DNA from: Dehalococcoidia bacterium
Lineage (GTDB): Bacteria; Chloroflexota; Dehalococcoidia; Plut-88900
Direction: 5' to 3'
Length of the DNA stretch: 64,000 nt
Assembly: GCA_965197645.1 (NCBI GenBank)
Contig: OZ240219.1
Coordinates: forward strand, 2,848,001 to 2,912,000
Shown: positions 3,760-8,070 of the stretch, in pieces
How positions within the stretch are numbered: position 1 is the first letter of the stretch
Layout of the letters: every line of letters begins with the position of its first letter
Position numbers and translations under genes: made by a program
The notes under the pieces: generated by a model
Told to the model about the DNA's origin: nothing
Databases searched by the model: none
The model's input: only the letters and a program-made list of their open reading frames with translations

Positions 3760-3789
3760 ATTATAGGCACACCCGAAAAAATGTGTCAA
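3760..3789 (-). promoter_or_regulatory. Sigma-70-type promoter of rpsU
   Basis: Minus strand: TTGACA (3789-3784), 18-nt spacer, TATAAT (3765-3760). Confidence 0.7.
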
Positions 3790-3867
3790 GGAAACTGGCA
3801 ATGATGCACTTGACACACCCTGATAGCTGTGATACGATTTCCTTGTAGTCAAAACGAGGTATCACAG

Positions 3868-4866
3868 ATGCAATCAGAGAAGCTAACCTTTCAAGCGGTG
3901 TTGCGGTGGGATGAGGAACAGTGCAGGCATTTTCTAGCCTCAATGCGGTGGCCTCAAGGTATCCGTTGCCCCAAGTGCGGCGCTACAGACGAACCTTACA
4001 CCATCACCCGCAAAAAGCCAGGCAAAAACAAGGTAACATCCCTCTACAAGTGCCGGGCTTGTAAGCGCCAGTTCAGCGCCACCCTCGGAACCATCTTTGA
4101 AGACAGCCACATTCCCCTCAACAAGTGGCTGGCGGCCTTATTCCTGATGGTGTCCAGCAAGAAGGGCATCAGTGCCCACCAGCTTTACCGCCTTCTTGAT
4201 TTGGGTTCCTACCGTACCGGGTGGTTCATGGCCCATCGTATACGGGAAGCTATGCGGGAGAAGGGATTGCTTGAACCTCTGTCCGGCGATGTAGAGGCCG
4301 ACGAAACGTACTTGCACCCTCGCCGCCGGCGTGGAAGCCCTGGATACCATGAGCGTGTCCAGGATGAGATTGAGATGGGCATTCGCCCGAAGCCCAGGCG
4401 GAAAGGCCCCTACGAGGGCAAGGCGGTTGTGTTCGGCATGCAAGAGCGTGATGCGAATGTTAGGACGGTGCATGTGCCCGACGCAACTCGCCAGACACTG
4501 CACCCGATAATCCGGCGGTGGATCGACTCGTTAAACACACGGCTGATTACGGACCAGCACCCGGCCTATCGTTTAGCGAAACGGTTCGTGAAGCACGAAA
4601 CCATCAACCACGAAACCGAGTACGTCCGGGGCGATGTGCACACGCAGAATATCGACAACTACTGGTCGATCTTCAAGAGGGGCATCTACGGGGTGTTCCA
4701 CCACATTGGGGAGGACTACCTACCCAACTACCTCAGCGAGTTTGACTTTAGGCGGAACCGGCGGAAGATATCGGACGTGGAGCGGTTCGTTAGTCTGATG
4801 GGCCAGCTTCAGGGCCGTCTTCTGTGGTACTGCAAGACTCCCCAGCCGGCGAATCCTTACGCGTAG
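3868..4866 (+). CDS. IS1595-family transposase
   Basis: N-terminal zinc ribbon (RWPQGIRCPKC...YKCRAC), GTIFEDSHIPL, VEADETY, LITD, HTQNIDNYWS and YLSEFDFR motifs. ATG 3868 follows GAGGT; the track uses GTG 3829. Confidence 0.93.
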   Translation: MQSEKLTFQAVLRWDEEQCRHFLASMRWPQGIRCPKCGATDEPYTITRKKPGKNKVTSLYKCRACKRQFSATLGTIFEDSHIPLNKWLAALFLMVSSKKGISAHQLYRLLDLGSYRTGWFMAHRIREAMREKGLLEPLSGDVEADETYLHPRRRRGSPGYHERVQDEIEMGIRPKPRRKGPYEGKAVVFGMQERDANVRTVHVPDATRQTLHPIIRRWIDSLNTRLITDQHPAYRLAKRFVKHETINHETEYVRGDVHTQNIDNYWSIFKRGIYGVFHHIGEDYLPNYLSEFDFRRNRRKISDVERFVSLMGQLQGRLLWYCKTPQPANPYA

Positions 4867-4996
4867 CGTCATCATCCCGCACTAGCGCGGTCACCGCTTC
4901 CTCGAACGATAGGTGCGCCAGCGAGATTCGTGTTTCGGCCTCGCTCCGCCTTTCAGTCATTGATCGTGCCTCCCCATTCATGTTACCCTAAATAGC

Positions 4997-5069
4997 GAAC
5001 GGCGACCCGAGCCTACTCGTCTGCAGGTTCCGACACCTGGTGTTAGCAGCACCGGGCGGGTCGCCGTTC
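4997..5069 (+). ncRNA. Putative structured RNA/DNA element (possible three-way junction) directly upstream of the tRNA
   Basis: Perfect 13-bp outer stem GAACGGCGACCCG (4997-5009) / CGGGTCGCCGTTC (5057-5069) enclosing the hairpin CCTGGTGT-TAGCA-GCACCGGG (5036-5056). Confidence 0.5.
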
Positions 5070-5073
5070 ACTT

Positions 5074-5164
5074 GGAAGGAGACCTAAGCTGGTGCTTAAT
5101 GCGGGCTTAAAACCTGTAGGGGCCGTGCCCACAGCGCGGTCAGGTTCGATTCCCTCTCCTTCCG
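5074..5164 (+). tRNA. Non-canonical tRNA-Sec-like (9/3 allo-tRNA-type) gene, anticodon UAA, discriminator G, CCA not encoded
   Basis: Acceptor GGAAGGAGA/TCTCCTTCC (9 bp); D arm TAAGC-TGGT-GCTTA; anticodon arm TGCGGG-CTTAAAA-CCTGTA; variable arm GGCCGTGC-CCACA-GCGCGGTC; T arm AGG-TTCGATT-CCC. Confidence 0.85.
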
Positions 5165-5186
5165 CTCTATCAAAAGGAGTTTAATC

Positions 5187-5663
5187 ATGCACGATGCAAG
5201 CAACAATAACGGGCAAACATCCAAAATGACTGTACAAGCAGATATGCACAGTGAAGCGGTCATTGTGGAACTTCAGGCGTTGTTGCGGCAACAAGAAACG
5301 GAGCGGCAAGCTGCTGAGCGCAAGATGGTTGAAGCCCGTGATACGGTGGCGGCAAACGAGCAAGCCATCGCTCACATCCAAGCCACCATCGACATGTACC
5401 GAGAGAAACACGGATTGCCTATTCCCAAAGACGAACAAGACCCTGTACTGGCGTCAGAATATGCGCGCATGGGGCCGACCGCATTGGTCAAGACATGGGC
5501 CGGCAGACACAACGGCGAAGTGATGGTCAAGGACCTTACTAAAGTTGGGCTAAAGGCTGGCGTGTTTCAAAAGTACCGCAACGGGTCAAGCAGCATCTAT
5601 TCCGTGCTGAAACGAGGCCCCTATGAACAGATCAAGCCAGGGCATTTTCGACAGCGACGCTAA
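5187..5663 (+). CDS. IS passenger hypothetical protein (N-terminal coiled coil, basic C-terminal domain that may bind nucleic acid)
   Basis: 158-aa ORF with AAGGAG RBS, starting 23 nt after the tRNA; heptad-like N-terminal half; the domain call is inference. Confidence 0.65.
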   Translation: MHDASNNNGQTSKMTVQADMHSEAVIVELQALLRQQETERQAAERKMVEARDTVAANEQAIAHIQATIDMYREKHGLPIPKDEQDPVLASEYARMGPTALVKTWAGRHNGEVMVKDLTKVGLKAGVFQKYRNGSSSIYSVLKRGPYEQIKPGHFRQRR

Positions 5664-5664
5664 C

Positions 5665-6207
5665 TTACTGGCGTTCCACGTCCACAGAAAACATCACGGA
5701 TTCAGTGGAGGGCAGGTAGTACAGGGTGAGCCACGCTTTCCCCTTCTTAGTCTGTAACTTTTTCTGGGTAAGGTTAAGGTCGTCTATCTTTGACACCACC
5801 CAGGTTTCCCCCTCCCGCCACTGACTCCCCATCGCTATCTGTAGCATCTTGCGCACAAGCGGGTCGATTATGGCCAGTGTGCTTGCCTGCAACCGGAACG
5901 TCGCCTCGATAGCATTAACACCCTCGCTCGGCCCGAATATGTCTACCGTGATATCCCCGGTCCGTGTCTTGGTGCTATACCAGTCGTTCGTATGCTTGTT
6001 GAGCGGCATCAACCCAATGCTCAACTGCTTGAAGCTGCTAAAGGCATCTTGGCGGCTGACGCCAAAATCGCCAGTGGTTGCTAGCGGGGTTGGTGCCGCT
6101 GTATAAGCCGGCGTGGGTGGGACGTACGGCTTGGCCTCGCAAGCTACCGCTCCAGTCATTAGGATCGCGATGGCTAGAATGGCAAGAATCCGAATCGGCT
6201 TGAACAT
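5665..6207 (-). CDS. IS passenger putative lipoprotein
   Basis: From ATG 6207: MFKPIRILAILAIAILMTGAVA-C signal peptide/lipobox and a Pro/Thr-rich linker. Confidence 0.65.
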   Translation of the reverse strand: MFKPIRILAILAIAILMTGAVACEAKPYVPPTPAYTAAPTPLATTGDFGVSRQDAFSSFKQLSIGLMPLNKHTNDWYSTKTRTGDITVDIFGPSEGVNAIEATFRLQASTLAIIDPLVRKMLQIAMGSQWREGETWVVSKIDDLNLTQKKLQTKKGKAWLTLYYLPSTESVMFSVDVERQ

Positions 6208-6461
6208 GTGGAACCCCCTTGCAAGTACGGATTCGGCACTTGCTACAGTCGCCGCGTCCATGTCAGCCTCGCAAGGGGGCACGTGGCCAAACCTATACAG
6301 GCTGACTGGAGACGACTGTAGCGTCGCCAATGTAACTTACGGGGGTGGGTGTGTCAAATGACTAATTGCCAGGAAACTGGCCTTGAACCCGCTTGGAGGC
6401 CCTCATATACTGGGACCGGAGCACTATCAAGCCGACAGCGAGTATCAAAGAGGAGGACGAG

Positions 6462-6716: not shown

Positions 6717-6762
6717 CCGACCTGTGTTGCCTCTCCTCCCGACCCAGGAGTAATATTGCCCC

Positions 6763-8070
6763 ATGAAGCTGGAGATGGGCGTCTTCAACGTAACCCAGGC
6801 GGAGTTCTCCGATAGGACCGAGTTCCACGACGGAGTCCTTTCAATCAACAAGGCCGAGCTTCTCCAGCACCTCTCGAAGGACTCTCCGTTTCAGAGGGTC
6901 GAACTCGACCTCGTACGGCCCGGCGAAGATGCCCGCATCGTCCACGCCCTTGACATCGCCGAGCCCCGGGTCAAGGTCTCCGGCCCCGGTCAGGTCTTCG
7001 CTGGCATGCTGGGACCTCCCAGCCAGGCAGGCGAAGGTCGTACCCATCGGCTGGCCGGCTTCTCCGTTGTTGGCGCCGCCGAACCGTTTCCCGGAGAGGA
7101 CGTCTGGTACGCCCGGGAAGCGGTGATCGATATGTCCGGCCCGGGCGCCGACTACTCTCTCTTCTCGCAGACGATAAACCTGGTGCTCTCCTTTGTACCT
7201 CACGATGGACCGACTGCCAACGAGCTGGAGGAGAGGCTCAACTACGAGGTGGACTACAAGACGGGCCAGGCCCAGGAGTACACTCTCCAGTCCCGATTGC
7301 TGGGCCTCAAAGCCGCCGGCTACCTCGCTGAGGCCGTCCGCAATATCGAGCCACCCGATATCGATATCTATGAGCTTTCGCCCGTGGAAGACAACCTACC
7401 CGGAATAGTCTACCTGGTTCAAAACCTGGGCGGTGTGATCTACGGAGCAAACGGCGCTCGGAGCAACAATGCCGTTCTGCTCCACCCCAACGAGCTAATG
7501 GACGGCGCAGTAGTCAACGGCAAGTGGTGGAACCACGCCTGCATGAGAGAGGCTACCTACCTCTTCCAGAACGATGCCGTAGTCAGCACTTTGTACGGCG
7601 CCCACGGCAAGACGCTCAACTTCCTCGGCGTAATCTTCTTCGACGGGGGCCAGTACGAGCTGGGGGACAAGGACCGGGAGAGCAGCGAGGTAGTAAAGAT
7701 CTCACGCATGTTGGGCGCCGATGGGGCCATCATTTCCCCCCTCAGCGCAGGACACCAGGCCGTCGGCTACATGATGATTTGCCAAAAGTGTGAGAACGCG
7801 GGAATCAGCACCGTCCTGGGAATAGGCCAGATGACCAACAACAAAGGCGACCCCGGCTTCACAACCTGGGTCCCCGAGGCCGACGCCATCATCATTCCAG
7901 GAGACGACGAGGAGATCCTTTCCCTTCCTGCGGTGAAGAGGGTGATCGGCGGGACCACGATAATGAACTCGTCCCAGGACGCGTCGGGGCCGATTGAGAT
8001 ACAATTGCGATCGATATACGGCGCCACCGGACCGATAGCGCCGGGCAGGTTAAGCGGCCGGTTGTACTAG
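6763..8070 (+). CDS. Glycine/sarcosine/betaine reductase component B proprotein (GrdE-like)
   Basis: DIAEPRVKVSG, GEGRTHRLAG, IDMSGPGADYS and LHPNELMDGAVV motifs; Cys in HACMREATY at the approximate proprotein cleavage position; directly upstream of the grdB-like gene. Confidence 0.85.
   Translation: MKLEMGVFNVTQAEFSDRTEFHDGVLSINKAELLQHLSKDSPFQRVELDLVRPGEDARIVHALDIAEPRVKVSGPGQVFAGMLGPPSQAGEGRTHRLAGFSVVGAAEPFPGEDVWYAREAVIDMSGPGADYSLFSQTINLVLSFVPHDGPTANELEERLNYEVDYKTGQAQEYTLQSRLLGLKAAGYLAEAVRNIEPPDIDIYELSPVEDNLPGIVYLVQNLGGVIYGANGARSNNAVLLHPNELMDGAVVNGKWWNHACMREATYLFQNDAVVSTLYGAHGKTLNFLGVIFFDGGQYELGDKDRESSEVVKISRMLGADGAIISPLSAGHQAVGYMMICQKCENAGISTVLGIGQMTNNKGDPGFTTWVPEADAIIIPGDDEEILSLPAVKRVIGGTTIMNSSQDASGPIEIQLRSIYGATGPIAPGRLSGRLY

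Follow-up and report, generated by a model that had tools for sequence, protein, structure and literature searches.

Allo-transfer RNAs (allo-tRNAs) are known mainly as metagenome curiosities and as chassis for genetic-code engineering. By the definition of Mukai et al. 2017 (PMC5389517) they are tRNA-Sec-like molecules: the acceptor/T branch counts 12 bp, divided 8/4 or 9/3, a tetraloop closes the long D stem, the variable arm is long and position 73 is G or U. UUA is listed there among the codons of the 9/3 species, and a Silvibacterium bohemicum (9/3) allo-tRNA-UAA is reported to insert Ser at UUA in Escherichia coli, with growth arrest on induction, while six allo-tRNA-UAU variants were translationally inactive. 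The hosts named are Clostridia, Proteobacteria and Acidobacteria; polycistrons of irregular tRNAs are reported, toxin-antitoxin neighbours are frequent, and one allo-tRNA pseudogene overlaps "a transposon-related protein" (PMC5389517). The same account is repeated in a 2020 review. Here we describe a locus in a 64,000-nucleotide stretch of a Dehalococcoidia genome (contig OZ240219.1; hereafter the window, meaning the whole stretch analysed). The RNA encoded at 5074-5164 (+) is very probably a (9/3) allo-tRNA, intact and with G73 and anticodon UAA, that is carried as passenger of a single-copy 2,574-bp insertion sequence (IS) of the IS1595 family; this element sits immediately upstream of the rpsU promoter, in a target site duplicated over 8 bp.

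A cmscan search of the window revealed tRNA-Sec (RF01852) as the sole Rfam family at gathering level, placed at 5074-5163 (+) with 50.8 bits (cut-off 47 bits), an E-value of 2.7e-07 and coverage of model positions 1-91. The 91-nt cloverleaf can be read directly from the sequence. Its acceptor stem is built of nine Watson-Crick pairs out of nine (positions 1-9 with 82-90) and is followed by a 2-nt linker. The D stem contains five Watson-Crick pairs and a C.A at the sixth position, with a UGGU loop; the anticodon stem has six pairs, two of them G.U, with the loop C-U-UAA-A-A, and the variable arm eight pairs (two G.U) and a 5-nt loop. The T arm consists of an A.C and two G-C pairs with the loop UUCGAUU, the discriminator is G (G73) and CCA is not encoded. 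U33, A37, G18-G19 and the UUCGAUU T loop are kept as in working tRNAs, and the indels with respect to the tRNA-Sec model are limited to those that define the 9/3 split; an 8/4 reading would leave the T stem with just two pairs. The single-sequence minimum free energy (MFE) is -41.6 kcal/mol (z -3.79), a stability equalled by none of 200 shuffles.

All the structural hallmarks of a 9/3 allo-tRNA are present in this molecule: the 9-bp acceptor, the three-position T stem and the tRNA-Sec-like D arm, together with a lengthened anticodon stem, a long variable arm and a high tRNA-Sec score with a non-UCA anticodon. The Ser identity set (long variable arm, G73 or U73) is also found. The RNA departs from tRNA-Sec, the selC product, in its anticodon (UAA, not UCA) and in its 12-bp 9/3 branch (not 13-bp 8/5), and from a canonical tRNA-Leu(UAA), characterized by A73, a Leu-type D arm and a 7/5 branch, in its G73 and tRNA-Sec-type D arm. 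Both the anatomy and the (9/3), UAA, G73 assignment had been proposed in a sequence-only reading of this DNA, and the Rfam match and direct inspection bear them out in every main point. Detection by programs, suggested there as a check, succeeded with Infernal (the tRNA-Sec match) and failed with ARAGORN, which called no tRNA in the window, the allo-tRNA included.

The element is delimited by two 24-nt terminal inverted repeats, at 3797-3820 (+) and 6347-6370 (-), identical at 20 of 24 positions (inverted repeat I1, with arms of 26 nt and 85% identity at 3795-3820 and 6347-6372). Because these repeats are flanked by the same 8-mer, AGGAAACT, at 3789-3796 and 6371-6378 (direct repeat D9), the element is placed at 3797-6370, with the tRNA inside it, as the sequence-only reading had stated. 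The transposase gene (3868-4866, +; 332 residues) encodes a zinc ribbon and an ISXO2-like DDE domain, with matches to Pfam DDE_Tnp_IS1595 (PF12762, 1.4e-33) and Zn_ribbon_IS1595 (PF12760, 1.9e-14) and, over the cut-off, to NCBIfam transpos_IS1595 (NF033547, 2.7e-59). Together with the terminal repeats and the 8-bp duplication, a length typical of the IS1595 family, these domains place the element in that family. TTGACA boxes face inwards in both repeats. That of the left repeat forms a -35 box toward the transposase gene, and a promoter-like site with the same direction (3810-3838, 10/12 with TG) lies in this repeat; another (6357-6329, -) leads from the right repeat toward an open reading frame (ORF) of 180 residues. 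Between transposase and tRNA, a Y-shaped and very stable hairpin (4994-5072, +; arms 4994-5009 and 5057-5072, 94%) ends 1 nt 5' of the tRNA; its 79 nt fold with -45.8 kcal/mol (z -5.17, 0/200 shuffles). Downstream of the tRNA, ORF158 (5187-5663, +) has its ribosome-binding site 22 nt past the tRNA, and the two are not separated by any predicted terminator-like site.

The element occurs once in the 3.2-Mb host genome, its transposase is likewise the sole copy, and its G+C content is 55% vs 61% for the genome. The insertion adjoins a 12/12 promoter-like site (3760-3789, -) facing the S21 (rpsU) gene, and the target duplication overlaps the -35 hexamer of this promoter by one base. DNA contigs of a second sample from the same study bridge the left junction without difference. 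The contigs of X3 and X5 cover the element in part, those of X5 containing only parts of the transposase; both sets are uninformative on absence. Comparison with five genomes of the same family gave no usable empty site, the left flank being only about 67% identical and the right flank not syntenic, which is too divergent.

R1, a covariance model trained on the single allo-tRNA of the window, revealed a relative in G284, a genome of the same class (L254:6148-6232; 37.6 bits, and 51.9 bits on Rfam tRNA-Sec). This RNA, of 86 nt, adopts a 9/4 cloverleaf as its MFE structure (z -3.42) and has the loop CCUAAAA, with the anticodon found in the window. R1 also matched in 7 of 151 sampled Acidobacteriaceae genomes, where by anticodon six (8/4) allo-tRNAs (GCG twice, UAU twice, GUA, and one with an 8-nt loop) and one selC were recognized. 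Covariation was examined in an alignment of 11 rows fitted to the model (the window's RNA, that of L254, the six allo-tRNAs and three selC). In it 94.1% of the cells pair, compared with 65.7% in shuffles and 41-50% in slid controls; 24 of the 30 pairs vary on both sides, and none of 500 shuffles reaches any of the measures, so the stem covariation that the sequence-only reading had asked for is found. The ninth acceptor pair is retained in just three rows, which is what relatives of the 8/4 and 8/5 types would lead one to expect. Anticodon UAA is common to three divergent copies whose stems differ: the window (CUUAAAA), L254 (CCUAAAA) and L024 (UUUAAAC).

Relatives of the transposase were collected from 447 candidates, 414 of them confirmed by tblastn, and 80 were kept as loci. 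The closest, from metagenome-assembled genomes (MAGs) titled Dehalococcoidia or Chloroflexi, share 54-79% identity with it; after them come relatives from many phyla that are about 40% identical. Among these 80 loci the tRNA sequence itself found nothing with nhmmer and only short chance hits with blastn (≤27 bits). Homologous IS1595 copies, for which a search had been proposed, were found to carry both a tRNA and an ORF158 homologue in two loci, L024 and L268, the latter in another phylum. In L024, repeats at about 4931 and 7092 enclose a frameshifted transposase (72% identical to that of the window), a 16-bp hairpin, a 73-nt tRNA(UAA) and ORF155, 31% identical to ORF158. This tRNA is of the 7/5 type, was called by ARAGORN only and has a cloverleaf as MFE fold (z -2.45); no alignment was obtained between it and the allo-tRNA of the window. 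The L268 element, in Acidobacteriaceae genome G416, is bounded by repeats 4743-4762 and 7502-7521 and carries on one strand, in this order, a transposase (40% identical), a tRNA(UGC), an allo-tRNA(UAU) with CCA and an ORF158 homologue (148 residues, E 1.2e-14). With L271 (G507), in which an IS1595 transposase is followed after 1.1 kb, on its own strand, by the allo-tRNA, two of the six acidobacterial allo-tRNAs are linked to IS1595; of the other loci, L266 and L270 have no transposase within 6 kb, L267 shows a weak partial transposase-like match and L269 is on a 4-kb contig.

ORF158 homologues are present in 4 of 401 sampled genomes of the class, G000 counted. In G284 (L254) the 9/4 allo-tRNA and a good promoter stand directly upstream of the homologue, with no transposase within 6 kb, and tRNA-like genes precede ORF158 homologues in L024, L254 and L268. 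The position of the window's hairpin is taken in L024 by the 16-bp hairpin and in L268, L029 and L082 by a second tRNA. Taken together, these sequence comparisons show that the allo-tRNA is IS cargo, that the module recurs across two phyla and that the tRNA fold is under purifying selection.

A profile derived from five ORF158 members reached 954 representatives at E ≤ 0.001, 349 of them at ≤ 1e-10. The AlphaFold model (five-row alignment; predicted local distance difference test score, pLDDT, 83.7) shows a long helix (residues 10-75) and a compact helix-strand domain (86-156), read as a long coiled coil and a C-terminal winged-helix (HARE-HTH-like) domain. Foldseek against the PDB gave no row at E ≤ 0.001 and weak winged-helix rows, including the N-terminal domain of the RNA polymerase delta subunit; in one family member Pfam matches HARE-HTH weakly (E 0.034, below the cut-off), and HARE-HTH is assigned to 19% of the members of an Atlas cluster near it. 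A word-based homologue search returned only ORF158 itself, and PADLOC and NCBIfam nothing meaningful for it. We predict with modest confidence that ORF158 is a coiled-coil DNA-binding protein. Two ORF158-type loci without transposase, L254 (5981-6030) and L255 (about 6720-6770, -), have a common upstream motif, GGCAG..AGTTTTAAGGACT, which may be an operator or an element end.

Other members of this IS group carry further tRNA genes. ARAGORN called 37 tRNAs in the 80 loci (759,559 bases). Both repeats could be fixed in 48 loci by the repeat motif that they share with the window's element, and the other 32, several with a tRNA just after the transposase, were set aside. The bounded loci contain 16 tRNAs inside the element, in 14 loci (138,997 bases), vs 11 in the flanks (348,338 bases), and the tRNA genes inside those 14 elements are mostly anomalous. 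Eleven tRNAs of 84-96 nt, seven inside fixed repeats and four in loci without them, make up one family with proline anticodons (UGG in nine, GGG and AGG), a D arm as in the host tRNA-Leu, a long variable arm and A73. Compensatory changes are seen in 16 of the 23 predicted pairs of this NGG family, whereas its D arm, T arm and anticodon loop are fixed. Its Leu-like assignment is based on the D-arm motif and A73; by global identity, a weak discriminator here, tRNA-Leu is best in 10 of 11 with small margins. A long-arm tRNA(UAU) is found in L020 and tandem irregular tRNAs in L029, L032 and L082. The protein cargo of sister elements includes PIN, DUF4411 with IrrE/HTH, DUF433, a methylase-Mrr fusion and DUF5343, and such cargo would, we infer, lie behind the toxin-antitoxin neighbours that Mukai et al. 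reported.

Several single loci of these collections deserve a record of their own. A short Pirellulales contig carries, at L040:3053-3142 (+), a 90-nt long-arm tRNA with anticodon UUA (ochre), which precedes an IS1595 transposase by 370 nt. The tandem pair of L032, an Actinomycetota MAG, lies within one IS1595 element and comprises a 95-nt long-arm tRNA called Glu(UUC) by ARAGORN (1876-1970, -) and a 68-nt gene (2051-2118, -) with a 9-bp acceptor, a 3-bp T stem and the loop CUUCAAA (R1 18.2 bits, E 0.63). Five loci of Pyrinomonadaceae, Chloracidobacterium or Acidobacteria (L043, L063, L077, L078, L091) show a normal tRNA-His(GUG) 1-4 kb upstream of the IS1595 element, which may reflect a shared or preferred site. 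Just outside the IS of L024, a T-box leader (7146-7402, +; 106.4 bits) precedes a gene for the acetolactate-synthase large subunit; it is unrelated. The tRNA-Sec model matched in 150 of 151 genomes of the class, swamped by true selC, and in a metagenome pattern scan 75 of 80 returned loci were ordinary selC, with no relative of the window's tRNA among the 80. Three metagenome contigs hit by the pattern (L136:927-991, L133:4692-4748 and L173) contain one selC-like tRNA with anticodon CUA (amber) and two tRNA-Sec-like tRNAs with anticodon UGG, one of them encoding CCA.

The host has the components with which the allo-tRNA could function: one seryl-tRNA synthetase (SerRS) with an N-terminal arm, two PolyA_pol-family nucleotidyltransferases and SelA. 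Its canonical tRNA-Leu(UAA) (C1:1521467-1521553) has A73, as in host tRNA-Leu generally, and G73 is found in selC and in host tRNA-Ser, of which there are four genes. The acceptor pairs G1-C72, G2-C71 and A3-U70 are common to the allo-tRNA and the host tRNA-Ser, both of which start with GGA. TTA is the rarest of the six Leu codons in this genome, with 0.98 per 1000 codons in a count over 2,252 long ORFs, some false frames among them.

The best overall explanation, on which our judgement is evenly balanced, is that of an IS-borne allo-tRNA which SerRS would charge and which would decode the Leu codon that the host uses least. We infer its expression, maturation and serylation, the reading of UUA as Ser and the control by ORF158, a chain of steps that seems plausible and a little short of probable. 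The tRNA would be co-transcribed with ORF158, either from a promoter that escaped prediction or by read-through from that of the left repeat; it would be released by RNase P and a 3' nuclease, possibly with the upstream hairpin as processing site, and CCA would be added by a host nucleotidyltransferase. The single SerRS would then recognise the long variable arm, G73 and the three shared acceptor pairs and charge the tRNA. The 12-bp acceptor/T branch would suit EF-Tu, so that UUA, and perhaps also UUG, would be read as Ser. Damage would be low and dose-dependent because UUA is so rare, and the winged-helix partner ORF158 would set the dose. The module would thus constitute a transferable mistranslation device, conditionally harmful or adaptive, rather than a decoder of the element's own genes.

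A number of observations weigh against this explanation. Only the acceptor, D and variable arms appear in the MFE fold; for the other two, the anticodon and T arms, the support comes from the covariance-model alignments and the covariation, and the T stem has only two Watson-Crick pairs beside its A.C. The anticodon loop of L254 carries C at position 33. CCA is encoded in selC and in the canonical class-II tRNA genes of the host that were compared, and is absent here. No promoter-like site is predicted between transposase and tRNA. On the favourable side, an RNA library from another study (labelled sponge metagenome) contains a contig of 176 nt that matches 4984-5128 without a difference and diverges over 31 nt upstream, from the hairpin start. 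This is a weak hint that hairpin and tRNA form one unit, perhaps transcribed; the contig has a depth of 2 and may be DNA carry-over. Against the explanation, again, the allo type is rare: of 401 sampled genomes of the class, a loop-motif pattern detected it in two, the host's own (G000) and G284 (the other matches were two ordinary tRNA-Leu and one probable chance match), and Rfam at gathering level matched nothing tRNA-Sec-like in the 13 IS1595 loci closest to the element. In two other ORF158-type loci, those of G179 and G100, what stands upstream is degenerate or unconvincing: that of L256 folds no better than shuffles (z -0.62), and nothing convincing is seen upstream in L255. No tRNA was detected with the two IS1595 copies of G426 that have an ORF158-like C-terminal domain. 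It follows that an ORF158-type protein does not need the tRNA. The element's transposase contains three TTA codons, at one hydrophobic column (Ile in 53 of 72 transposases) and two variable columns, and Ser would be of no help at such sites because of their hydrophobic or variable nature. Self-recoding, in which the tRNA would be needed for the element's own transposase, was rejected on these columns; ORF158 has no TTA, and among the 11 elements with NGG tRNAs none has Pro at a conserved L/I/V/M transposase column. A Leu-to-Ser mistranslator is without evident benefit.

The strongest competitor, possible though unlikely, is a non-translational role, in which a tRNA-like RNA that is never charged or used by the ribosome would serve as a 5' leader, a processing or stability signal (for example an RNase P/RNase III entry point) or a regulator of ORF158 or the element. 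Its proximity to the ORF158 ribosome-binding site with no predicted terminator, the long hairpin adjoining its 5' end and the absence of CCA agree with such a role, as does the conservation of the module with a varying tRNA architecture (91-nt 9/3, 86-nt 9/4, 73-nt 7/5, degenerate); the inactive allo-tRNA-UAU variants provide a published parallel (PMC5389517). Against this stand the intact stems, the functional positions kept as in working tRNAs, the UAA anticodon held in three divergent copies despite stem changes, and the full tRNA-type covariation in the NGG family of sister elements; moreover, the published (9/3) UAA species works in E. coli (PMC5389517).

An inactive relic, hitch-hiking in the element, would explain the single copy, the lack of CCA, the weak T stem and the rarity of the type, and is nevertheless improbable given the perfect 9-bp acceptor, the intact 8-bp variable arm, the lack of indels beyond those defining 9/3 and the compensatory changes with respect to relatives. 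Just as little likelihood is attached to a decoy, target or antidote tRNA, by which IS1595 tRNAs would counter or trigger PIN-type nucleases or other tRNA-cutting toxins and defence cargo. The PIN, DUF4411 with IrrE/HTH, DUF433 and methylase-Mrr cargo of sister elements speaks for it, as do the toxin-antitoxin systems noted near allo-tRNAs by Mukai et al. 2017 (PMC5389517); yet in the window's element Pfam and NCBIfam gave no PIN or other recognisable toxin and PADLOC only weak coiled-coil matches, and no link of a particular toxin family to a particular anticodon was seen. Finally, a decayed copy of the host selC, which the sequence-only reading had named as a way of being wrong, or a chance match, would account for the score on the tRNA-Sec model. 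The host selC is intact elsewhere (C1:214533-214631; 66.4 bits, anticodon UCA, CCA encoded) and the allo-tRNA is 60% identical to it, no closer than to the other host tRNAs (48-63%) by crude global alignment; with the E-value, the fold z score and the relatives in other genomes, this explanation is refuted as far as sequence comparison goes and retains hardly any credibility.

Two further ORFs complete the element. A small ORF of 63 residues (4790-4981, -), convergent with the end of the transposase gene, has no Pfam match; its central motif ...HLSFEEAV..LV... is kept in two blastp clusters, of nine loci (including the window) and 12 loci, and it may be a small regulator of the element. The ORF of 180 residues (5665-6207, -), driven from the right repeat, has a signal-peptide- or lipobox-like N-terminus by eye and no family match in Pfam, NCBIfam or PADLOC. 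The hairpin at 4994-5072 may be a processing site or a degenerate tRNA or tRNA-like element.

Two more irregular tRNA-like genes were noted in the host genome. The first, at C1:904113-904203 (-) (L272:4014-4104), without CCA and called tRNA-Leu(GAG) by ARAGORN, resembles the RNA of the window in its tetraloop D arm, 6-bp anticodon stem, long variable arm and T-stem A.C; it reaches 25.8 bits on tRNA-Sec, folds with z -1.77 and has no transposase nearby. GAG and UAA are the anticodon pair described as tested from S. bohemicum by Mukai et al. (PMC5389517). The second, at C1:1714430-1714502 (-) (L273:4032-4103), is a 73-nt class-I tRNA with the Leu anticodon UAG (Rfam tRNA 48.2 bits), a 6-bp anticodon stem, A73 and no CCA, in style like the 73-nt tRNA(UAA) of L024; a normal tRNA-Leu(UAG) is also present.

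More broadly, this IS1595 clade might be a dedicated vehicle that spreads tRNAs with mismatched identity and anticodon across phyla, often with a winged-helix partner; we regard this as a tentative and rather unlikely generalization. Equally tentative is its extension to Ser-type allo-tRNAs at Leu/Ile codons, Leu-type tRNAs at Pro codons and ochre-suppressor-like tRNAs, and to Chloroflexota, Acidobacteriota, Actinomycetota, Verrucomicrobiota and Alphaproteobacteria. If it were true, regulated mistranslation would be a mobile, horizontally transferred trait. Partial conversion of the Ser-charged allo-tRNA by SelA, giving selenocysteine at UUA via EF-Tu in a selenium-using host, is very improbable. 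The locus gives allo-tRNAs a defined vehicle, an IS1595 element with ends and target duplication, as well as a conserved protein partner and a probable new host phylum, and the same vehicle family carries other mismatched tRNAs under clear purifying selection on the fold. With such a vehicle, the loosely defined "transposon or toxin-antitoxin" surroundings recorded in 2017 would have an explanation, and it becomes testable whether mistranslating tRNAs are exchanged among bacteria as mobile cargo, and how they are controlled. Annotation can hide or mislabel these genes, since ARAGORN missed the allo-tRNA and canonical look-alikes are called tRNA-Pro or tRNA-Leu.

With regard to the closest described molecule, the sequence-only reading overstated the novelty of the tRNA, whose type is not new because the S. 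bohemicum (9/3) allo-tRNA-UAA was already described (PMC5389517); its other remark, that it knew of no described IS1595 unit with an allo-tRNA, is supported. A literature search for IS1595 with a tRNA or passenger, with subscription papers and ISfinder outside its scope, found no description of this unit, nor a paper treating an allo-tRNA and a transposase together. What is new is the context, a defined IS1595 module with an allo-tRNA and ORF158, and the tRNA belongs to a known class. By description, the S. bohemicum species and the window's RNA are alike in the 12-bp 9/3 branch, tRNA-Sec-like D arm, long anticodon stem and variable arm, Ser-type discriminator and anticodon UAA for the Leu codon UUA. 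They differ in host (Acidobacteria vs Dehalococcoidia) and in that the window's RNA resides in a defined IS1595 element beside a winged-helix gene, while activity is known for the S. bohemicum RNA only. The Acidobacteriaceae (8/4) allo-tRNAs (40-47 bits on R1) share the overall fold, T loop and G73, and two of six are just downstream of IS1595 transposases, one of them followed by an ORF158 homologue; they are unlike the window's RNA in the 8/4 split, in the anticodons UAU, GCG and GUA and in that one encodes CCA. Bacterial tRNA-Sec (RF01852) has in common the 6-bp D stem with tetraloop, the 6-bp anticodon stem, the long variable arm and G73, and is serylated by SerRS, as proposed for the window's RNA; it differs in its 13-bp (8/5) branch and UCA, against 12-bp (9/3) and UAA here, and the host has a separate true selC.

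Natural mistranslating tRNAs are represented by the tRNA-ProX family of Streptomyces, and a dedicated UUA decoder in a G+C-rich genome by bldA, a tRNA-Leu(UAA) that carries Leu; both are chromosomal and of the canonical 7/5 type, and to our knowledge neither has been reported as insertion-sequence cargo. The allo-tRNA of the window resembles them in its mismatch of identity and anticodon or as a dedicated decoder of rare UUA. As to the vehicle, IS1595-family elements with passenger genes are reportedly termed "transporter IS" by Siguier and colleagues in 2009 and in ISfinder. The present element resembles these in its zinc-ribbon and DDE transposase, short terminal repeats, 8-bp duplication and passenger downstream of the transposase, and is set apart by the frequency of tRNA-like passengers in its group, found in 14 of 48 elements by ARAGORN alone; in the literature searched, tRNAs are nowhere recorded as IS1595 passengers.

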